Shown here piece by piece: positions 27,351 through 39,297 of a stretch of DNA of 50,399 nucleotides. This DNA comes from an uncultured Victivallales bacterium (GTDB taxonomy: Bacteria; Verrucomicrobiota; Kiritimatiellia; UBA8416; CAZWPN01). Position numbers and translations under genes: made by a program. The notes under the pieces are model-generated. The model did not search any database. It saw only the letters and a program-made list of their open reading frames with translations, and was not told where the DNA came from. Within the stretch, counting starts at the first letter, position 1. The number at the start of each line of letters is the position of its first letter. The stretch lies in contig CAZWPN010000008.1 of assembly GCA_964635275.1 (NCBI GenBank), positions 1-50,399 on the forward strand, given 5' to 3'.

Positions 27351-28025
27351 GTGTCCGTAGTCAATGATTCTGTTGTGCGAGAGTACTTCGAGGGCATGGG
27401 GTTTATGGTGGTGCAGCCATGCAAGTACGCCATTCCGGGCCGCCAGAAGCAACCGGAAGAGGAAATGGACCTTCTCATACTGAATCCACGTGATGTTGAG
27501 CACGCGGTGCCGGAGGGGTTTGTGTGGAGCACCAGCGATTTGCGCAACGTCAAGGCGGCTGTCGTGGGAGTGCGTGGGTGGCACACGGAACGATTCTACC
27601 TGTCGAAGATGGAGCAGACCCCCGAGATATGGCGTTTCGCCGACCAGAGCACCCTGGATGTCGCATCGCGAATCCTTGGGACGCGTCAACTGGCCCGGAT
27701 ACTGTGTCTCCCGAGACTGCCGGCGTCTGGCGAACTGAAGCGGCAGACCATCGAGTTTCTGCGAAGCAGGGGTGTTGACGGGGTGCTGCCATTCCGGACC
27801 ATCCTTATGGAACTGCTGACGAGAGTGGATGCCCACCGGAACTACGAGAAATCAGACGTGCTTCAGATTCTTCGCATGCTCAAGAGCTATGACCTGATCA
27901 AGTACGACCAGATGGAGCTGTTCGAGAAGAAACACACCAAAGCGCGTCAACGACGCTCCACGTTGAGCAGCTCAACTGCCGTTGTCGGGTTGCCGGGCGA
28001 CTCCGATTCTCAGGCCGGCTCGTAG
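27351..28025 (+). CDS. Hypothetical protein, possible degenerate PD-(D/E)XK nuclease fold
   Basis: 224-aa ORF in operon after aroB with GGAGG RBS; VREYFEGMGF.V / EEMDLLI / VGVRGW pattern. Confidence 0.7.
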   Translation: MSVVNDSVVREYFEGMGFMVVQPCKYAIPGRQKQPEEEMDLLILNPRDVEHAVPEGFVWSTSDLRNVKAAVVGVRGWHTERFYLSKMEQTPEIWRFADQSTLDVASRILGTRQLARILCLPRLPASGELKRQTIEFLRSRGVDGVLPFRTILMELLTRVDAHRNYEKSDVLQILRMLKSYDLIKYDQMELFEKKHTKARQRRSTLSSSTAVVGLPGDSDSQAGS

Positions 28026-30004
28026 ATGAACAGCGCCTGATCCTTGGTAACCGCCTGTCCGTGTTCGACCAGGCACTTGACGATCTTACAGTTGCATGGC
28101 GCCTTGATCTGGTTAAACAGTTTCATGGCCTCCACAGTGCAGACCGGATCGCCTGCCTTTACGGTGTCGCCTGCCTTGGCGAAGATGGGCTTTCCAGGTC
28201 CTGACGACCGGTACAGCGTTCCGTTCAGGGGTGCTTTGATTGTCAATGCGTTGCTTGCTGCCTTCTCAGGGACCTGTTCCGCTTTGGGTGGCGGCGGTTT
28301 GGCGGCCGCGGCTGGCTTCGCTGCCGGCTGTGTGGTGGACTTGGCATCTGGGCTGCCGGCTTCCTGCTGAACTGCGACCCCCTCGGATTTGAGGCTCAAT
28401 GTCAAGTCGTTGCGACGAATGACGATCTCGTTGAAATTGAGCTGATGCACTTTGTCCAGCAACTGCTGGATTTCGCGATAGTCTTCGTTGGAAAGGAATG
28501 CCTGAGGCGTCGCGGACGCTTCCGCCGGGGCGGTCTTTTGCTCCTTGGCCTTCTTTTCCTTCATCAATTCGATGTCGGCTGGTGGGGTGGCGCGTTCCTC
28601 AATGGGCGTGTTGCGCCAGCGGAAGTAGTCTAGAGCGACTTCTGGGAACAGGCAGTAGGACAGGATGTCTTCCTCGGTCTTTATCAGGCTCGGGTCCACA
28701 TTAGTTGTGGCCTGCGGAAGCATCGGTGGCAGAAGGTCCGCCGGTCGACACGTGATGAGTTTCTCTTCTCCAAGGATTTTCTTTCGGATGCGAGGGGCGA
28801 TCGGCGCGGGTGATCGACCATACATCCCCCGCACATAGTCCTTGGTTTCCTGCGTAACCATTTTATAGCGCTCGCCGGACAGCACGTTCAGGACAGATTG
28901 GACGCCAACTATCTGGCTGGTCGGCGTCACGAGGGGCGGATAGCCGAGATCGGCACGAACCAGCGGCAACTCCGTTAGCACCTCATCCAGACGGTCCAGC
29001 GCGTTCTGCTGCTGCAGTTGTGAGCGCAGATTGGAGATCATGCCGCCAGGGATGTGGTGAATGAGGATTTCAGGATCGATGACGTTATCCGGCTGATGGC
29101 TGAGACGGCGCTCCGGCGCCAGTTTGATGAAGTAGTCACACATCTTCCTAAGCGCCGACACGTCAAGATTGGCGTGGTAATAAGTCTCTTCGAAGATAGC
29201 CAGCATGGTCTCCACGGGTGGCTGGGATGAGAACCCGGCCATTGGCGAGATTGCACAATCGATGGCACCGGCGCCGGCGACAACACCTTCCACATAAGTT
29301 GCCGTGGCCATTCCGCTGGTGGCGTGGGAATGGATCTGGATCGGAACCTTCACCTCCCGAAGCAGGGCCGAAACGAGCTTGCGGCAGGATATCGGTGAGA
29401 GAATTCCGGCCATGTCCTTGATGCAGATTGAGTCCACGCCGATCGCCGTCAACTCGTGAGCGATGCGACAGAACTCCTTCACCGTGTGCATCGGGCTGAT
29501 TGTGTAGCAGATGGTTCCCTGAGCGTGGCCGCCGTATTTCTTCACGGACTTGATTGCCTGCTCGACATTGCGGGTATCGTTGAGTGCGTCGAATACCCGG
29601 AAGATATCAATGCCGTTCTGACATGCCAACGCAATGAACCGATCGAGCATGTCGTCCGGGTAATTCCGATAACCGACCACGTTTTGTCCACGAAGGAGCA
29701 TCTGTAGTGGCGTCTTCTTGCACTTGGATTTGATCTGACGCAGTCGCTCCCAAGGGTTCTCGCGAAGGAACCGCAGGCATGTGTCGAAAGTTGCGCCGCC
29801 CCACACCTCCAGGGAGTAGAATCCCGCCGCGTCAACAGTGTCAACAATACCCAGAATGTCCTTGGTGCGCATGCGCGTCGCCCACAGCGACTGGTGCGCG
29901 TCACGAAGGGTTGTATCCGTTATGCGCAAAGGTATACGGTGCATACGCTTGTGTGCTGCTTCGGCTTCGGCGCTGGCATCGGTCTCTTTGTCAGTGTTAT
30001 TCAT
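28010..30004 (-). CDS. Pyruvate/oxaloacetate carboxyltransferase (PycB/OadA/5S-like) fused to an AccB-type biotin carboxyl carrier protein
   Basis: CT motifs: LRDAHQS, EVWGGATFD, PWERL, MLLRGQN, IKDMAG, HSH, PGGM.SN, GYPPLVTPTSQIVG. C-terminus: AccB-like helical N-segment, Ala/Pro linker, EAMK biotinylation site. Confidence 0.93.
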   Translation of the reverse strand: MNNTDKETDASAEAEAAHKRMHRIPLRITDTTLRDAHQSLWATRMRTKDILGIVDTVDAAGFYSLEVWGGATFDTCLRFLRENPWERLRQIKSKCKKTPLQMLLRGQNVVGYRNYPDDMLDRFIALACQNGIDIFRVFDALNDTRNVEQAIKSVKKYGGHAQGTICYTISPMHTVKEFCRIAHELTAIGVDSICIKDMAGILSPISCRKLVSALLREVKVPIQIHSHATSGMATATYVEGVVAGAGAIDCAISPMAGFSSQPPVETMLAIFEETYYHANLDVSALRKMCDYFIKLAPERRLSHQPDNVIDPEILIHHIPGGMISNLRSQLQQQNALDRLDEVLTELPLVRADLGYPPLVTPTSQIVGVQSVLNVLSGERYKMVTQETKDYVRGMYGRSPAPIAPRIRKKILGEEKLITCRPADLLPPMLPQATTNVDPSLIKTEEDILSYCLFPEVALDYFRWRNTPIEERATPPADIELMKEKKAKEQKTAPAEASATPQAFLSNEDYREIQQLLDKVHQLNFNEIVIRRNDLTLSLKSEGVAVQQEAGSPDAKSTTQPAAKPAAAAKPPPPKAEQVPEKAASNALTIKAPLNGTLYRSSGPGKPIFAKAGDTVKAGDPVCTVEAMKLFNQIKAPCNCKIVKCLVEHGQAVTKDQALFIYEPA

Positions 30005-30034
30005 GTCATATACCTCGTGTGGGTCATGGAATGT

Positions 30035-30988
30035 TCAGCGTTTCTTCATGCGGCCCATAGCGCAGAATTTCTCGAACCGTTGTTGGATCAGATATTTTGG
30101 CGATGCGCGTCGCCACGTTTTCAGCTGATCGATCAGAGCGCTCTTTACGGACGCGAACACGGCCGTGGGGTTGCGGTGGGCGGCTCCTGGAGGCTCTGGA
30201 ACGATCTTGTCAATGATCTTCAGGGCGAGCAGGGAAGGGGCGGTGACCTTGAGCGCCTCCGCTGCTTCCGGAGCCTTGGCCCCGTCGCGCCATAGAATCG
30301 AGGCGCAGCCTTCGGGAGAGATCACGGAGTAGATGGCGTAGGAAAGCATCAGCACCGAGTTCCCGACAGCGATACCCAAGGCGCCGCCGCTTCCGCCTTC
30401 ACCGGTGATAATAACGATGACAGGAACCGTCAGCTTGGCCATCTCCTCCAGATTACGCGCTATCGCTTCCGCCTGCCCTCGGGCTTCCCCTTCCAGGCCC
30501 GGGTAGGCGCCGGGTGTGTCAACAAAACACAGAATGGGAATGCGGTACTTCTGGGCAAGTTTCATGAGGCGAAGGGCCTTGCGATATCCTTCGGGGTTGC
30601 CCATGCCGAAGTTCGCCTTGACGTTCTCCTCTACTGTCTTTCCTTTCTGATGACCGATGACCATGACACGGAAACCATCGATCTTGGCAAATCCGCCGAT
30701 GATCGCATGGTCGTCACCAAAGGATCGGTCGCCATGGAGTTCGATGAACTCGGAGAAGACCGCCCCAAGGTAGTCCCGAATGGTGGGGCGCTCAGGATGG
30801 CGCGCGACTTGCACAGTCTGCCACGGTGTTAGCTTGGCGTAGATCGCAGTCAGCAGCTCGCTGTGCTGCTTTTCCATCTCAAGTATTCTGGCAGCATTGG
30901 GATGCGATGCGTCGGATTCGTCCTGCTTCCTTAGCGCCGCGATGTCGGCTTCTAGAGCGACGACTGGCTTTTCAAAGTCGAGTTCCAT
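30035..30988 (-). CDS. accA: Acetyl-CoA carboxylase carboxyltransferase alpha
   Basis: LDFEKP, LTPWQTVQVARHPERP, ELHGDR.FGDD, DTPGAYPG, GEGGSGGAL, YSVISPEGCASILW. Confidence 0.97.
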   Translation of the reverse strand: MELDFEKPVVALEADIAALRKQDESDASHPNAARILEMEKQHSELLTAIYAKLTPWQTVQVARHPERPTIRDYLGAVFSEFIELHGDRSFGDDHAIIGGFAKIDGFRVMVIGHQKGKTVEENVKANFGMGNPEGYRKALRLMKLAQKYRIPILCFVDTPGAYPGLEGEARGQAEAIARNLEEMAKLTVPVIVIITGEGGSGGALGIAVGNSVLMLSYAIYSVISPEGCASILWRDGAKAPEAAEALKVTAPSLLALKIIDKIVPEPPGAAHRNPTAVFASVKSALIDQLKTWRRASPKYLIQQRFEKFCAMGRMKKR

Positions 30989-31043: not shown

Positions 31044-31880
31044 TTATCGGTTCCAGTATCCAAGGACCTTGGCTAGGAAGTCCCTCATCTCTCGTCGATC
31101 CACTATCTTGTCAATAAATCCGTGTTCCAAGGTGTACTCGGCGGTCTGGAAATCATCCGGAAGCTTTTGCTTGATCGTCTGCTCGATGACGCGTCGGCCT
31201 GCAAACCCGATGAGGGCACGCGGCTCGGCGATATTCAGGTCGCCGAGCATGGCGTAACTCGCGGAGACCCCACCGGTTGTGGGATCAGTCATTATCGATA
31301 TATAAGGAATACCAGCAGCGTTCAACTTGGCTATGCCAGCGCAGGTCTTGGCCATCTGCATGAGCGATACGATCCCCTCGTGCATGCGGGCACCGCCTGA
31401 GGCCGAGACAATAACGTAGGGGAGTTTGTGCTTCAGTGCGTACATGGCCCCGAGAAGAATCTTTTCGCCGGTGCCGCTGGCAAGACTGCCGCCCAGAAAT
31501 CGGAAGTCCATCACGGCGAGCATCAGGTGGATGTTGTTAATCTTGCCACGTCCGGTAACTACCGCTTCCTTGAGCCCTGTTTCCGCCTTGACCGATACAG
31601 CCTTGTCGGAATAGCTGCCTTTTGCATCCTTGAAATTCAGTGGGTCCGACGTTGTGACTTCGGAGAAAAGCTCTTTGAAACTGTTAGGGTCCAACAACAT
31701 TTGTATGCGTTCAGGGGCGGATAGCCGCTCGTGATACCCGCACTTGGGGCAAACCTTGAAAGTGGCAAGCCACTCATCCCTGTACATGTGGGCCTTACAA
31801 GAGTTGCAGATGGTCCAGATTTCCTTCGTTTCCTCTGGAACGACGACGGTATTGCTCTTGCTCCTGGTGAACCAACCCAT
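31044..31880 (-). CDS. accD: Acetyl-CoA carboxylase carboxyltransferase beta
   Basis: Zn ribbon CNSC..CPKC, MDFRFLGGS, SGGARMHEG, PTTGGVSAS, IGFAGRRVI, FQTAE. Confidence 0.97.
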   Translation of the reverse strand: MGWFTRSKSNTVVVPEETKEIWTICNSCKAHMYRDEWLATFKVCPKCGYHERLSAPERIQMLLDPNSFKELFSEVTTSDPLNFKDAKGSYSDKAVSVKAETGLKEAVVTGRGKINNIHLMLAVMDFRFLGGSLASGTGEKILLGAMYALKHKLPYVIVSASGGARMHEGIVSLMQMAKTCAGIAKLNAAGIPYISIMTDPTTGGVSASYAMLGDLNIAEPRALIGFAGRRVIEQTIKQKLPDDFQTAEYTLEHGFIDKIVDRREMRDFLAKVLGYWNR

Positions 31881-32026
31881 GGGGAACACGGCTCCTTTTT
31901 TTCTGCTTGGTCGGCATACTGGCCACTGTGAGCTCAGATTTCAAGAAGAAAAAGGCATGTATTGGAGTGTTTTTCGGGAACGGCGCTGAAATGGGCGCTA
32001 AATATACTCAAATTATGTTGCTGATG

Positions 32027-33773: not shown

Positions 33774-33956
33774 ATGGCTGTACCGAAGAGAAAAACGTCA
33801 AAGATGAAGATAAGGACGCGCAAAGCGTCTCACAGGCGAGTTGTAACGGCCACGTCGCCGTGTCCCAACTGCCAGGCGCCCCGCAGACCTCACCGGGTGT
33901 GTCCCTCGTGCGGATACTATCGCGGGCGTCAGGTGGTTACGGTCGAGACAGCCTAG
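33774..33956 (+). CDS. rpmF: 50S ribosomal protein bL32 (Zn-ribbon form)
   Basis: MAVPKRKTSK..R.RK; CPNC..PHRVCPSCGYYRG; AAGGAG RBS. Confidence 0.97.
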   Translation: MAVPKRKTSKMKIRTRKASHRRVVTATSPCPNCQAPRRPHRVCPSCGYYRGRQVVTVETA

Positions 33957-33958
33957 CC

Positions 33959-34966
33959 ATGCGGATTGCCGTTGACGCCATGGGGGGCGATCATGCTCCC
34001 CGCGAGATTGTTCTGGGCGCAGTGAAGGCGGCAAGGGAGCTGCCGGATCTGACCAGCGTTATTCTGGTAGGCGACAGCGCGGCGATTCAGTGTGAACTGG
34101 ATGCCGGCGGTGGGACTCCTGACAACGTGGTGATTCTGCATGCCGCCGAGGTTATTGGCATGGACGAATCGCCGGCGCAGGCGATTCGGCGCAAGCGGGA
34201 TTCATCAATCAGCCGTGCGATGGAACTGGTGAAGCGTGGGGAAGCCGATGCGATGGTTTCGGCCGGAAATACCGGCGCTTTGGTAGTGGCCGCAACCTTG
34301 ATGTTGCGCACTCTTAAGGGGGTGGACCGGCCGGCTATTGCCGCTGTCATGCCCACGCGCAAGGGCCCGTTTGTTCTGGTCGATGCCGGAGCCAATCCGG
34401 AGTGCGATGCGTCATTATTGCGGCAGTTCGCTGTGATGGGTGAGCTGTACGCGCGGGTCATACTTGGCAAAGCTAACCCGGTAGTCGGGTTGCTGGGCAT
34501 CGGGGTGGAGGCATCAAAGGGTAACGAGGTTACGCGCGAAGCCTTCGGGTTGCTTAAGAGCACACGGATTAACTTCAAGGGTAATGTCGAGGGACACGAC
34601 CTTTTCGAAGGCGATGTCGATGTGGTGGTGTGCGACGGGTTTACGGGCAATGTGGTTCTGAAGACATCCGAGAGCGCGGCTCGGGCGATTTCCCACTGGA
34701 TGCGGCAGGAGTTCACCAGAACCCCGATTCGCAAATTCGGGGCTTTGTTGCTGAGCGGTGCGCGAAAGAGTATGAAGGCGCGAATGGATCCCGAGATGTA
34801 CGGTGGTGCTCCGTTGCTTGGCGTAAACGGCATCTGCATCAAGATTCATGGCGGATCTTCGCGGAGGGCGGCGTTCCACGGCATTCGGGTGGCCTGCGCG
34901 TCGGCGCATGAGCATCTGAATGACATGATTGAAAAAGGAATAGCGGACAGTTCGAGGGCGCAATGA
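33959..34966 (+). CDS. plsX: Phosphate acyltransferase
   Basis: MRIAVDAMGGDHAP, SAGNTGA, DRPAIA, GNVEG, CDGFTGN, GGAPLLGVNG. Confidence 0.97.
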   Translation: MRIAVDAMGGDHAPREIVLGAVKAARELPDLTSVILVGDSAAIQCELDAGGGTPDNVVILHAAEVIGMDESPAQAIRRKRDSSISRAMELVKRGEADAMVSAGNTGALVVAATLMLRTLKGVDRPAIAAVMPTRKGPFVLVDAGANPECDASLLRQFAVMGELYARVILGKANPVVGLLGIGVEASKGNEVTREAFGLLKSTRINFKGNVEGHDLFEGDVDVVVCDGFTGNVVLKTSESAARAISHWMRQEFTRTPIRKFGALLLSGARKSMKARMDPEMYGGAPLLGVNGICIKIHGGSSRRAAFHGIRVACASAHEHLNDMIEKGIADSSRAQ

Positions 34967-35964
34967 ACGGAGTATCAAAGCAGGGAATCAAGGCGGCCAT
35001 TGTGGGGACCGGGTCCTACTTGCCGGAGCGTATCCTTTCCAATGCGGAACTGGAGAAGAGTGTCGACACAACCGACGAGTGGATTGTGACTCGCACTGGC
35101 ATACGAACTCGGCACATTGCGCGTGATGACGAAGCTACATCGGACATGGCAGCCTTGGCTGCGCAGCGGGCCATCGAAAGCGCTGGGATCAACCCGATGG
35201 ACATCGGCCTTCTGCTGGTGGCCACCGTAACCCCGGACATGCCTTTCCCAAGTACGGCGTGTTTTGTGCAGGAGAAGATCAAGGCGAAGAATGCGGTATG
35301 TTTCGATGTTGAGGCAGCGTGCTCCGGTTTTCTTTTTGCGGTGGAAACGGCCCGCCAGTACATTGAGAATGGGACTTACAGCACTGCGCTGGTGATAGGC
35401 GCGGAGAAATTGAGCGTTATTACCGACTGGAAGGATAGGGCGACATGCGTCCTGTTCGGTGACGGCGCCGGAGCCGTGGTGCTGCGGCGCAGTGAGACGG
35501 GAACCGGGATTCTTGGGAGTGTTATGGGTTCGGACGGAGCGCTAACAGCTCTCCTTAATGTTCCAGGCGGCGGGAGCCGTAATCCCATCAGTACATCCAT
35601 GATCGAGCAACGGCTGCCCTTCATCAGGATGACCGGGAATGAGGTTTTCAAGCACGCGGTGCGCTGCATGTGCGACGCCGCTCAGCGGGCGGTGGCTGCG
35701 TCGGGCCATACTATAGGAGATGTTGACTGGGTTGTTCCTCACCAGGCCAACATGCGGATTGTCCAGGCAATTGCCGACCGGCTAGGCGACGCAATGCCAA
35801 AATTCATCGTTAACCTGGATCGCGTGGGGAACATGTCTGCTGCCTCCATACCCGTGGCCCTTGACGAAGCGGTGCGGGCTGGCAGGATACAGCCTGGGCA
35901 TAAAGTTCTTTTCGTGGCGTTTGGCGGCGGGTTTACGTGGGGTGCCTCTCTGATTCAATGGTAG
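34963..35964 (+). CDS. fabH: Beta-ketoacyl-ACP synthase III
   Basis: WIVTRTGI, AACSGF, LFGDGAGA, PHQAN, GNMSAAS, GGGFTWG. Confidence 0.97.
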   Translation: MNGVSKQGIKAAIVGTGSYLPERILSNAELEKSVDTTDEWIVTRTGIRTRHIARDDEATSDMAALAAQRAIESAGINPMDIGLLLVATVTPDMPFPSTACFVQEKIKAKNAVCFDVEAACSGFLFAVETARQYIENGTYSTALVIGAEKLSVITDWKDRATCVLFGDGAGAVVLRRSETGTGILGSVMGSDGALTALLNVPGGGSRNPISTSMIEQRLPFIRMTGNEVFKHAVRCMCDAAQRAVAASGHTIGDVDWVVPHQANMRIVQAIADRLGDAMPKFIVNLDRVGNMSAASIPVALDEAVRAGRIQPGHKVLFVAFGGGFTWGASLIQW

Positions 35965-35977
35965 ATGGAGAATCGCA

Positions 35978-36904
35978 ATGACAAATAGGGCGATGGTGTT
36001 TGCGGGGCAGGGCGCGCAGTTCGTGGGAATGGGCAAGGACTTGGCCGATGCATATCCTGCCTGTGCTGCGCTGTTCAAGAAGGCGGATGATGTTCTGGGC
36101 TACTCGCTTTCGAGTCTGTGTTTCGCGGGGCCAGTTGAAGCGCTGACGAAATCCAACGTGTGTCAGCCGGCGATCTTTGTGACGAGCGCGGTCTGTCGCG
36201 CAGCGCTCCTTGAACGGAAGCCTGCCCTTGAATGGGTCGGGTTGGCGGGCCTGAGTTTAGGCGAATGGTCGGCGCTCTATGCTGGTGGCGTACTGAGTTT
36301 TGAAGACACGCTTCGGGTTCTGGAGGCTAGGGGGCGGTTCATGCAGGAGGCGTGCGAGGAGAACCCGGGTGGTATGGTCAGCGTGATGGGGCTTGCGGAG
36401 GAAAAACTTCGCTCTGTGTGCGCTGCGACAGGCGTCGAAGTGGCCAACCTGAACTCGGCAGACCAGATTGTGTTGTCTGGACCGAAGGCGGCGATCGCCG
36501 AGGCCGAAAAGGCGGCTCAGGCGGCTGGCGCCAAGAAGACGGTGGTGCTCAGCGTGGCAGGAGCCTTTCATTCGCCTCTCATGGCGTCGGCTGCGAAAAA
36601 ACTGGAGGCCACGCTTGACTCTGTGGCGATGAGGGCGCCTGGGATTACTGTGCTGTCAAACGTAACTGGTCAACCGCATGGCGGAACGGAGTCCATTAAG
36701 GAAGCCATGGTGCGGCAGGTGTGCGGGACGGTCCGGTGGGCGGATTGTATAGAATGGTTTAGGCAGCATGGGACGACCGGGTACGTGGAGTGTGGACCAG
36801 GCAGGGTCCTGAGCGGGTTGATCAAGCGTGTGGATGGAATCGCCGCACTTGCTAATGTGCAGGACAGGCCCTCGCTTGACAAGGCGGCAGAATCACTGGC
36901 GTGA
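35978..36904 (+). CDS. fabD: Malonyl-CoA:ACP transacylase
   Basis: FAGQGAQ.VGMG, QPAI, GLSLGE, RGRFM, GAFHS, ECGPG. Confidence 0.97.
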
Positions 36905-36933
36905 GTATTGATCGTGACACGGAGGTTGGCGAT

Positions 36934-37677
36934 ATGGGAATACTTGACGGTAAGGTGGCTGTGGTGACTGGAGCGGCCCGTGGAATCGGGCGCGCGATTG
37001 CGGAGTCGTTAGCGGATGCCGGCGCGGACGTTGCCGTATGCGATATTCAGGAGGCTTGGTTGGCCGATACGGCGGCAGCCTTGGCGGCCCGTTCGCGCCG
37101 AACGCTTACCCTGGCCGTGGACGTCGGCAATGCCGAGGCTGTTAATGCTGCCGTGGCTCGGGTTATCGAGACATTCGGCAGGGTTGACATCATGGTTAAC
37201 AATGCCGGGATTACGAAGGACGGCTTGCTGGTTCGGATGTCCGACGAAGACTGGGATGCCGTCATAAACGTGAACCTGAAAGGAACCTTTCTGTTTACGA
37301 GGGCCGTTGCCAAGCCCATGATGAAACAGCGTAGCGGAGTGATTGTCAATATTGCCTCAATTATTGGCTTGATCGGCAACGCCGGGCAGTGTAATTATTC
37401 CGCCTCGAAGGCAGGGGTGATTGCATTGACCAAGTCGAGCGCAAAGGAGCTGGCGTCTCGAAACATACGCGTCAATGCCGTGGCGCCGGGGTTCATCGAG
37501 TCGAAGATGACTGAAGCGCTGTCGGAAGAAATCCGCAAGAAAATGTTGGATACCATTCCTATGCAGCGCTTTGGAACGCCGGGTGACGTGGCCAATGCCG
37601 TAGTGTTCCTGTCGGGGGATTCGTCGTCGTACCTTACAGGGCAGGTGATCAACGTGAACGGCGGAATGGTGATGTGA
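36934..37677 (+). CDS. fabG: 3-oxoacyl-ACP reductase
   Basis: [27 protein letters not shown]; GGAGG RBS before ATG 36934. Confidence 0.96.
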
Positions 37678-37731
37678 GTGAGGTTTGGGAGAGTAGGGGG
37701 GTAGGTTAACCTTAAGGAAGGAGCTAGGATT

Positions 37732-37971
37732 ATGGCGCTTGAAGACAAAGTGAAGGAGATCATTGTAGAACAGTTGGGAGTCAATGCCGATCAGGTGACT
37801 CCAGAGGCATCCTTTACAGAGGATCTTGGTGCGGATTCGCTCGATACAGTGGAACTCGTCATGGCGTTCGAAGAGGAGTTTGGCCAGGAGATTCCTGACG
37901 AGGAAGCTGAGAAGCTGAAGACTGTTGGAACGGTGATCGAGTATCTCAAGGGTAAGGGCATAACGGCCTAA
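37732..37971 (+). CDS. acpP: Acyl carrier protein
   Basis: [21 protein letters not shown]; acidic 79-aa protein. Confidence 0.98.
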
Positions 37972-37991
37972 CGATTTCTCACGAGGCGATG

Positions 37992-38027
37992 GACCGAAGC
38001 ATGCCCCGGCTGGCGGCTTCGGTCTTT
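37992..38027 (+). terminator. Stem-loop between acpP and fabF (partial terminator or mRNA stabiliser)
   Basis: GACCGAAGC (37992-38000) pairs with GCTTCGGTC (38016-38024), followed by TTT. Confidence 0.55.
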
Positions 38028-38055
38028 CGCTAGTGGGTGGGACGACGTCTGAAAC

Positions 38056-39297
38056 ATGAGAAAAGCAGTAATAACCGGCATAGGGGTGGTTACGCCGTTG
38101 GGATGCGACACCAAGGTGTTTTGGGATCGTATCAAGGCTGGGCAGTCCGGCATCAAGCGAATCACCAAATTTGATACAACGGCCTACGACAGCAAGATTG
38201 CGGGGGAGGTGGAGGGGTTCGACCCTCTGAAGTTCATCGAGAAGAAGGAACTTCGGCGGATGGACGAGTTCTGCCACTATATACTTGCCTGCTCGAAGAT
38301 GGCTATTGCTGACTCAGGCCTGAACCTTGCAGTCGAGACGCCGGAGCGCATCGGAGTTGTTGCCGGTTCTGGAATAGGAGGACTTCAGACGCTTCAGACC
38401 CAGCACACTGTCCTGAAAGAGAAGGGGCCTGGGCGCTGTTCGCCTTTCATGATTCCCATGATGATTCCGAACATTGCTGCTGGTTTGGTAGCGATCCAGA
38501 GCGGTCTGAAGGGGCCGAATTTCGCGATCGTCACCGCTTGCGCGACCGCCGCACATTCCGTGGGGGAAGCGCTTAAGTTGATCCAGCGCAACGACGCCGA
38601 CATCATACTTGCTGGCGCTTCAGAGGCGTGCGTCTGCGAGCTTGGTGTGGCCGGATTCTGTGCTATGGGCGCTTTGTGTACGACGTCCAACGACGATCCT
38701 ACCAAAGCCAGTCGTCCGTTTGATGCCAACCGGTCCGGCTTCGTTATGGGCGAAGGCGGGGCGATGCTTGTGGTGGAGGAGTATGAGCATGCGCGTAGGC
38801 GCAACGCGACGATCTACTGCGAGTTGTCTGGTTTCGGCATGACGTGTGATGCCTTCCATATTACCGCTCCGGCGGATGATGGAGCAGGCGCCGCCCGCGC
38901 AATGACACTGGCTATGGCAGACGCCGCACTTTGTCCGGGCGACGTTGACTATATCAACGCCCATGGTACGAGCACAAATCTGAACGACAAGATTGAGACA
39001 CGTGCAATAAAGACGGCGCTGGGCGAGGCCAGGGCTCGCCAGATCATGGTTAGTTCCACAAAGTCCATGACCGGGCATCTGCTTGGTGCAGCGGCTGGCA
39101 TAGAGCTGGCGGTATGCGCGATGGCGCTTCGCGATGGGATTGTGCCGCCGACCATCAACTATGAGACACCGGATCCCGACTGCGATTTGGACTATGTGCC
39201 GAATGCGGCGCGCAACGTGCCCATCCGGGCATGCCTGAAGAATTCGCTGGGCTTTGGCGGGCATAATGCCTGCGTGGCCTTGCGGAAACTGGCGTAG
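38056..39297 (+). CDS. fabF: Beta-ketoacyl-ACP synthase II
   Basis: VITGIG.VTPLG, TACATA, NAHGTST, KSMTGHLLGAA, NSLGFGGHN. Confidence 0.97.
   Translation: MRKAVITGIGVVTPLGCDTKVFWDRIKAGQSGIKRITKFDTTAYDSKIAGEVEGFDPLKFIEKKELRRMDEFCHYILACSKMAIADSGLNLAVETPERIGVVAGSGIGGLQTLQTQHTVLKEKGPGRCSPFMIPMMIPNIAAGLVAIQSGLKGPNFAIVTACATAAHSVGEALKLIQRNDADIILAGASEACVCELGVAGFCAMGALCTTSNDDPTKASRPFDANRSGFVMGEGGAMLVVEEYEHARRRNATIYCELSGFGMTCDAFHITAPADDGAGAARAMTLAMADAALCPGDVDYINAHGTSTNLNDKIETRAIKTALGEARARQIMVSSTKSMTGHLLGAAAGIELAVCAMALRDGIVPPTINYETPDPDCDLDYVPNAARNVPIRACLKNSLGFGGHNACVALRKLA

Follow-up and report, generated by a model that had tools for sequence, protein, structure and literature searches.

We analysed a 50,399-nt stretch of contig CAZWPN010000008.1 (the window) from an uncultured Victivallales bacterium (GenBank assembly GCA_964635275.1), in which three adjacent, co-directional genes on the minus strand probably encode a transcarboxylase. 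The first two, accD and accA, encode the carboxyltransferase subunits of acetyl-CoA carboxylase (ACC). The third and last (28010..30004, minus strand, stop codon at 28010-28012) is a fusion gene, delimited by its open reading frame (ORF) and by Pfam and NCBIfam matches; its 664-aa product consists of a carboxyltransferase (CT) domain of the 5S/PycB/OadA type followed by a whole AccB, the biotin carboxyl carrier protein (BCCP) of ACC. The spacers are 55 nt long between accD and accA and 30 nt long between accA and the fusion gene. The accD gene (31044..31889, minus strand), for the beta subunit with its Zn ribbon, was recognized by TIGR00515 (355.8 bits, cut-off 317) and by the Pfam domains Carboxyl_trans and Zn_ribbon_ACC; its true start is likely the conserved Met three codons downstream of the listed GTG (M4 is unvarying in 47 orthologues). 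The accA gene (30035..30988, minus strand), for the alpha subunit, matches Pfam ACCA with 456.7 bits over model positions 2-310 of 310.

The Pfam domains of the 664-aa protein come in the order HMGL-like, PYC_OADA and Biotin_lipoyl. The oxaloacetate/pyruvate CT domain occupies approximately residues 22-482 (28559..29941, minus strand), with NCBIfam matches over residues 26-470. Four of its residues, D30, K196, H225 and H227, do not vary among 69 orthologues; by the literature on 5S and pyruvate carboxylase they are the putative metal ligands and carbamylated Lys. The top NCBIfam match of the whole protein is PRK09282, ‘pyruvate carboxylase subunit B’ (778 bits, cut-off 402), just the name that the original prediction, made from the letters of the window, had expected of automatic annotation; proteins of the fusion type are thus misnamed by such pipelines. 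The 5S equivalog model NF008984 gives 500 bits, below its cut-off of 827.

The last 157 residues (28013-28483, minus strand, from DYREIQQLLDKV... to ...LFIYEPA) match the NCBIfam BCCP model TIGR00531 nearly end to end (model positions 2-154 of 156, E-value 3.6e-31, 108.7 bits), well above what chance would give, while the PycB, OadA, MmdC and 1.3S-type models give at most 63 bits on this tail and cover the biotinyl domain only. The tail also aligns end to end with stand-alone AccB proteins of 150-170 aa, such as P0153 (1-157 versus 2-164 of 164) and P0159 (1-157 versus 2-163 of 163). In a phmmer search against the PDB sequences its first match is E. coli BCCP (4hr7_B, E-value 1.3e-16, query 1-154 on chain residues 22-175), while the transcarboxylase 1.3S chain 1dcz covers query residues 95-151 only and the PycB of 5ks8 residues 84-156 only.

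Three parts can be told apart in the tail. The AccB N-terminal segment (residues 508-547, 28364..28483, minus strand), delimited by colinear alignment and by AlphaFold2 (AF2) modelling, has one helix and a beta-hairpin: in the AF2 model of the whole protein the helix spans residues 506-521 and the strands residues 526-531, 534-539 and 542-547, at a predicted local distance difference test (pLDDT) score of ∼68-78, and the helix and the first two strands recur in a model of the tail only. An Ala/Pro/Lys-rich flexible linker follows (approximately residues 548-586, 28247..28363, minus strand), with non-conserved alignment columns and pLDDT <50 over residues 545-578. The ACC-type biotinyl domain (residues 587-664, 28013..28246, minus strand) is defined by the Pfam Biotin_lipoyl match (residues 588-659), by pLDDT of 95-98 in the tail model and by Foldseek. 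It contains K628 (28121..28123, minus strand), the predicted biotinyl-lysine of the motif EAMKL, aligned with the lysine of EAMKM in E. coli BCCP; E625, A626, M627 and K628 are unvarying in 69 orthologues. It also contains the ‘thumb’, RSSGPGKPIF (R599-F608, 28181..28210, minus strand), where the original prediction had placed it. This stretch aligns without a gap with the E. coli thumb in the phmmer alignment (tlyrssgpgkpifakagd over tfyrtpspdakafievgq), with the insertion that sets it off lying on G602-F608.

The structures closest to the AF2 model of the tail in Foldseek are Arabidopsis BCCP1 (9a87) and the E. coli entries 1bdo and 4hr7, all thumb-bearing BCCPs of heteromeric ACC (template modelling score to target 0.92-0.95, root-mean-square deviation 0.7-1.0 Å). 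According to PMC11926652, the BCCPs of E. coli and plants have the thumb, and it is lacking in ACC2, in the 1.3S subunit and in methylmalonyl-CoA decarboxylase, the pyruvate carboxylase 5KS8 and propionyl-CoA carboxylase; the paper also states, citing Cronan 2001, that BCCP function is lost on mutation of the thumb.

To compare the module with its relatives we aligned 91 fused modules, 16 stand-alone AccB proteins from accC-bearing genomes of the phylum, six stand-alone AccB proteins from the protein database, and 12 thumb-less proteins of the OadA/PycB type, including the 611-aa OadA of the same genome (contig C59). Eleven loci were left out of the alignment, being duplicates or near-identical (L034, L039, L050, L060, L061, L063 and L084), lacking a biotin domain (L035-L037) or cut short (L106); P0016 has no recognisable motif. 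The seven-column insertion (G602-F608) is present in all 91 fusions and all 22 stand-alone AccB proteins and in none of the 12 OadA/PycB-type proteins. The segment DYREIQQLLDKVHQLNFNEIVIRRNDLTLSLK is gap-free and colinear with the N-termini of the 22 stand-alone AccB proteins; the DYREIQQ stretch, which the original prediction had likened to the start of AccB, is thus aligned as proposed. A tree was built from 74 rows (all non-fusion rows, all class B rows as defined below, every third class A row and the window) with the thumb columns removed; with 78 columns and a quick search its finer branching is unresolved. Even so, the fusions and AccB stand apart from the 12 OadA/PycB-type domains with a Shimodaira–Hasegawa-like approximate likelihood ratio test (SH-aLRT) support of 99; the fusions themselves fall together with a support of 90. 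We conclude that the last 157 residues of this PycB-like protein are, as judged by sequence, a complete AccB, from the helix-hairpin at its N-terminus through the Ala/Pro linker to a biotinyl domain that has the thumb, and not a biotinyl domain of the pyruvate carboxylase/oxaloacetate decarboxylase type.

The earlier proposal that a pycB/oadA-type CT had fused to accB and kept the determinants of interaction with ACC thus stands for the fusion itself; for the determinants it stands as a matter of sequence conservation. An internal start that would free AccB, also raised there, finds no support in this sequence: the codon four residues before DY is CTT, and no ATG, GTG or TTG occurs in the 12 codons upstream. 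Among 56 orthologues this position is Met in 19 and Leu in 37.

The closest stand-alone AccB proteins (P0006, P0009-P0012 and P0014, 163-170 aa) share the GPGKP thumb and the motif AMKLFN with the fusions, whereas the AccB proteins of the phylum itself read AMKVMN; by this likeness the captured accB may have originated outside the phylum. A search for near homologues of the tail gave only 15 matches, and several of these are pieces of fusion genes from short contigs. No match longer than 700 aa was present among the best 150 representatives for the tail. Longer homologues of the fusion were sought as well, and the 120 matches listed are nearly all single-chain pyruvate carboxylases; no fully fused form of the ACCT/PycB kind (see below) is among the matches listed, a negative that this crowding makes weak.

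We collected 89 related loci. In 67 of them (class A) the fusion has the whole AccB-like tail, in 18 (class B, for the most part with the label Kiritimatiellia) the match is confined to the biotinyl domain, and the remaining four, which come from other phyla, lack an AccB-like tail. The class B proteins keep the thumb and have a 15-residue deletion in the N-terminal segment; in the biotinyl tree they form a single clade nested within class A. In class A the fusion gene is preceded by accA wherever 1200 nt or more of upstream sequence are available (61 of 61 loci), and by accD together with accA wherever the upstream sequence reaches 2600 nt (46 of 46), while in class B an adjoining accA was found in none of the 14 loci with enough flank. 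The N-terminal segment is conserved where accD, accA and the fusion are linked and dispensable elsewhere. We considered a causal tie between loss of the segment and loss of linkage to accD-accA, and rejected it: class B is one nested clade, and in genome G047 the segment is wholly gone from the fusion, yet this fusion stands behind a fused accD-accA frame. In that locus (G047:C2:474775-477270; L113, L135) the frame that holds accA is 772 aa long and probably represents accD fused to accA; the next gene, directly behind it, encodes the CT::biotinyl protein of 567 aa. This arrangement may be a step toward a fully fused form. With the thumb kept in 91 of 91 fusions, AccA/AccD appears to require the thumb-bearing AccB domain of the carrier, as far as conservation can tell, and the N-terminal segment to be dispensable in some lineages. 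We infer that the AccB-type domain, rather than a PycB-type carrier, has been kept because AccA/AccD must accept it.

Genes for type II fatty-acid synthesis (FAS II) lie close by. About 2 kb upstream of accD, on the opposite strand, are rsmD-like, coaD-like and yceD-like genes, followed by a cluster of plsX, fabH, fabD, fabG, acpP and fabF (33860..39297, plus strand; Pfam FA_synthesis, ACP_syn_III, Acyl_transf_1, adh_short_C2 and ketoacyl-synt; TIGR00128 with 298 bits for fabD), ∼4-9 kb from the accD-accA-fusion operon. The putative acpP gene in this cluster (37732-37971, a 79-aa ORF) was assigned from position and sequence.

The partner that an ordinary ACC would need is biotin carboxylase (BC), encoded by accC. 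In the genome of the window, a draft of 377 contigs and 95% completeness, we found no BC with PF02785 and none with PF00289; TIGR00514 gave only the two halves of carB and one weak ATP-grasp match (at most 54.6 bits), and tblastn with the AccC proteins of relatives gave carB only (22-26% identity). No free accB was found in this genome either, the fusion being its sole AccB-like match.

The fusion is present in 36 of the 41 genomes of the order (split over two contigs in G031 and cut by a contig end in G013). It is absent from the three genomes of family f9, from G011 (63% complete) and from G023. TIGR00531 matches above the cut-off occur in eight of the 41 genomes, each within the fusion frame; a stand-alone, near-full-length match was found in none of the 41, all such matches being inside the fusion frame. 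At an E-value of 1e-20 or better, accC was detected in 10 of the 41 genomes. It is missing from 28 of the 36 fusion genomes, 15 of these 28 being at least 90% complete, and 17 of the 28 lack both OadB and accC. Two of the ten accC matches belong to family f9 (G008:C8:42068-43663, G028:C35:4331-5935), where they lie in a multidomain frame of 1530-1551 aa, with a biotin carboxylase and then a BCCP-like stretch, and PDB entry 9kkm, ‘Acetyl-CoA carboxylase multifunctional enzyme AccADCB’ (1517 aa), is among the weak matches of the tail; it seems that a single-chain ACC stands in for the fusion and vice versa.

The same pattern was seen across the phylum, in 201 evenly sampled genomes of 90% completeness or more that were searched for accC at an E-value threshold of 1e-100. 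The accC gene was found in 154 genomes, and 25 of the 47 without it belong to the class of our bacterium. All of these 25 carry an AccB-like module in a long frame (567-733 aa in 24 of them, cut by a contig end in one), whereas in accC-bearing genomes with rows tabulated for both genes an accB of 150-350 aa adjoins accC. Only one genome, G021, has both the fusion and accC. Fused AccB and the accB-accC pair are nearly mutually exclusive in this sample. When five accC-less genomes were rechecked, a Biotin_carb_C domain was detected in none of them at an E-value of 0.001, including a genome of 6.1 Mb in a single contig, while accA was present in all five.

A separate case in the phylum is genus g76 of family f53 (e.g. 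G103:C1:2440573-2441913), where 16 of 17 genomes (1.9-3.2 Mb) have neither accC (at 1e-100) nor an AccB-like protein (at 1e-12), and where a 5S-like carboxyltransferase frame of 505-508 aa with no biotin domain was seen in five of five genomes checked. Malonyl-CoA in this genus is possibly made by a classical 12S/5S/1.3S transcarboxylase.

Bacterial fatty-acid synthesis, according to textbooks, begins with the ATP-dependent carboxylase AccABCD. For the window we consider it probable that accD, accA and the fusion gene form a three-gene, ATP-independent acetyl-CoA:oxaloacetate transcarboxylase, with complex, reaction and direction deduced from gene content. In the CT domain oxaloacetate would give up its carboxyl group to the biotin on K628 and leave as pyruvate; the flexible linker would swing the carboxybiotin over to AccA/AccD, which would hand the carboxyl group to acetyl-CoA, yielding malonyl-CoA for the nearby FAS II genes. 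Neither ATP nor activation of bicarbonate would be required, and the fusion would tether the carrier to the second active site. In a genome with neither accC nor OadB, the fused AccB can obtain carboxybiotin in two ways only, by the CT domain with oxaloacetate as donor or by AccA/AccD with malonyl-CoA as donor; since FAS II consumes malonyl-CoA, the net reaction presumably turns acetyl-CoA and oxaloacetate into malonyl-CoA and pyruvate. Oxaloacetate could come from phosphoenolpyruvate (PEP) via a PEP carboxykinase of the GTP type, making PEP + CO2 + GDP + acetyl-CoA → pyruvate + GTP + malonyl-CoA possible, with the ATP of AccC saved. In relatives with a solitary accC the same carrier could additionally be charged with ATP. 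A GTP-type PEP carboxykinase is present in the genome of the window as fragments at three contig ends (C163, C195 and C271; tblastn). Two of these fragments cover the same N-terminal part, with 83-95% identity to the protein of a relative; the fragmentation could reflect a mixture of strains or a repeat-like break in the assembly.

A BC-free transcarboxylase forming malonyl-CoA has been published for anaerobic protists. The primary papers on the protist enzyme are Jordan et al. 2003 and Barbosa-Cabrera et al. 2012; Clark 2007 is cited alongside the latter. A ‘(methyl)malonyl-CoA:pyruvate transcarboxylase’ is reported for Entamoeba histolytica, Giardia, Mastigamoeba, retortamonads and Monocercomonoides in passages of PMC8136499, PMC7985675 and PMC12308965, the last of which uses the name ACCT/PycB; the reaction proposed in these passages is the formation of malonyl-CoA and pyruvate from acetyl-CoA and oxaloacetate, replacing the conventional synthesis of malonyl-CoA in anaerobes. 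Judged by its name, the protist enzyme has the same modules, an ACC-type CT, a PycB-type CT and a biotin carrier; in the bacteria these modules come together as an operon, its three genes being adjacent in all 46 loci whose flank is long enough. The protist modules, however, lie on a single polypeptide and feed fatty-acid elongation, whereas here they are distributed over accD, accA and CT::AccB and a full FAS II would be served. Likened to the published description, accD-accA-fusion would represent in bacteria, and in split form, what ACCT/PycB is as a single chain.

Three other systems share some of the parts. With the heteromeric ACC of the E. coli type the operon has in common clear AccA and AccD members and a carrier with the AccB N-terminal segment, linker, thumb and EAMK motif; it differs in that no AccC was found, that AccB is the tail of a second CT of ∼500 residues instead of a free subunit of ∼16 kDa, and that the carboxyl donor would be oxaloacetate and not ATP plus bicarbonate. 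The transcarboxylase of Propionibacterium shermanii (12S, 5S and 1.3S; EC 2.1.3.1) is likewise free of BC and made of two CTs, one of 5S type, and a carrier, and according to PMC8085960 it also takes acetyl-CoA + oxaloacetate. Its CoA-side CT is the PccB-like 12S subunit where ours would be AccA/AccD, and as carrier it uses the 1.3S protein, which has no thumb and is a subunit of its own, in contrast to the fused carrier of AccB type. PycB and OadA proteins share the CT architecture (HMGL-like and PYC_OADA) and a C-terminal biotinyl domain, but their carriers have neither thumb nor AccB N-terminal segment (12 of 12 comparators), and their partners are PycA or OadB, whereas here BC was not found and OadB pairs with another gene.

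Several observations weigh against the transcarboxylase reading or against parts of it. The tail scores 6.5 bits below the curated equivalog cut-off of TIGR00531 (115.2 bits). Class B and G047 have lost the N-terminal segment in part or as a whole, so it is not essential to what the enzyme does. The absence of accC from a draft of 377 contigs rests on its estimated completeness and on the pattern in relatives, and the threshold applied to the phylum sample is strict, such that a very divergent carboxylase would have been missed outside the five genomes rechecked at 0.001. Finally, a biotin carboxylase match does occur in eight of the 36 fusion genomes of the order (above the accC cut-off in seven, below it in G038). 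The fused carrier may thus be, or have been, charged by BC, the N-terminal segment perhaps surviving for that reason.

The main rival explanation builds on the last of these points: a BC whose gene lies in another place and either was missed in the draft or has diverged would charge the fused AccB, AccA/AccD would form an ordinary ACC, and the CT domain would belong to a two-subunit pyruvate carboxylase (PycA/PycB). The eight genomes with a BC match have no stand-alone accB; there the partner that suggests itself is the fused AccB, and in G027 accC adjoins the PEP carboxykinase gene; in the four loci of the order that were inspected accC is solitary, with unrelated neighbours. The N-terminal segment of E. 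coli AccB is needed for binding of BC, and its retention in the fusion fits a BC partner. That the genome of the window is a draft also leaves room for such a gene. On the other side, three family models and tblastn revealed no BC domain in this genome, BC was not found in 28 of the 36 fusion genomes of the order, nor at 1e-100 in the 25 accC-less relatives of the class, nor at 0.001 in the five rechecked genomes, the single-contig one included, and chance loss of accC across so many assemblies of at least 90% completeness is not credible. A BC acting in trans is real for the eight relatives with a BC match; for the genome of the window we regard it as unlikely.

A second possibility accepts the complex and reverses or buffers it, with malonyl-CoA + pyruvate → acetyl-CoA + oxaloacetate serving anaplerosis or the use of malonate. 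Transcarboxylations are near equilibrium, according to the part of PMC8085960 on EC 2.1.3.1, so the pools of metabolites would set the direction. The operon, however, stands beside the malonyl-CoA-consuming genes plsX-fabHDG-acpP-fabF, and with no accC the FAS II system would otherwise be left with no supply of malonyl-CoA; no other source of malonyl-CoA was identified, malonate-activating genes not having been searched for. The reverse direction is improbable.

Slightly less probable still is that the fusion serves a Na+-pumping oxaloacetate decarboxylase as its alpha subunit, acting with OadB, and that accD-accA are incidental neighbours or yield a Na+-pumping malonyl-CoA decarboxylase. OadB is indeed encoded in the genome of the window, and the 664-aa protein reaches 705.8 bits through its CT domain on the oadA model TIGR01108, yet the score stays below the cut-off of 756.5, and the OadB gene lies directly behind the separate, thumb-less 611-aa OadA of contig C59. 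Wherever coordinates were compared, OadB adjoins a thumb-less OadA-type gene of 604-623 aa. OadB is present in 16 genomes of the order and absent from 25, the 17 fusion genomes with neither OadB nor accC among the latter, and accD-accA keep their place beside the fusion in all 46 loci whose flank suffices. An artefact, in which a mis-assembly or frameshift had joined a pycB-like gene to accB, is refuted for practical purposes, because a contig of DNA run X2, from a study other than that of the possible source sample, spans the CT-AccB junction (27800-29520), differing by one letter and showing no gap, and the same fused frame recurs across the order (36 of 41 genomes) and in 85 of the 89 loci; nothing was found in favour of an artefact.

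A broader proposal, for which we see about even chances, is that the Victivallales/Lentisphaerae-like order and its Kiritimatiellia-labelled relatives gave up ATP-dependent biotin carboxylation, making all malonyl-CoA for FAS II with the three-gene transcarboxylase and its captured AccB, and that the operon represents the ancestor type of the protist ACCT/PycB. If this is true, a large group of anaerobic bacteria of the Planctomycetes–Verrucomicrobia–Chlamydiae (PVC) superphylum would be wholly devoid of biotin carboxylase. AccC and the AccB-AccC pair are targets of antibiotics. PEP carboxykinase and the transcarboxylase together would save one ATP per malonyl-CoA, an advantage for fermenters, and the operon would offer metabolic engineering a ready-made design for an ATP-neutral supply of malonyl-CoA. 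It would also give a bacterial context to the odd fused transcarboxylase of Entamoeba and Giardia. In the full-text literature, whose coverage leaves out most subscription journals, we found no description of a bacterial accD-accA-(CT::AccB) operon, of a bacterial oxaloacetate:acetyl-CoA transcarboxylase or of PVC bacteria with no BC.

RNA-library contigs from three runs (two samples of one study) match parts of accD, accA and the fusion gene. Record 27 of X9 (28379-28638) spans the CT/AccB junction and record 21 of X7 (29553-30077) the spacer between accA and the fusion. RNA libraries can hold DNA and a contig over two genes proves no single transcript, so these contigs are a weak hint that the three genes are expressed. 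A joint reported as ‘skips 75’ at 28951/29027 (side 21, loose ends), along with bins that were not covered, was set aside, as these look like contigs of related organisms.

Downstream, a 224-aa ORF (27351-28025, plus strand), with no Pfam family at an E-value of 1e-4, is convergent with the fusion gene and shares the final 16 nt of that gene. Elsewhere in the genome there are two birA genes for biotin-protein ligase (C28:2401-3105 and C59:12259-12960), of which the one on C59 lies immediately upstream of the cluster of thumb-less OadA and OadB; they may encode separate ligases for the thumb-bearing and thumb-less carriers.

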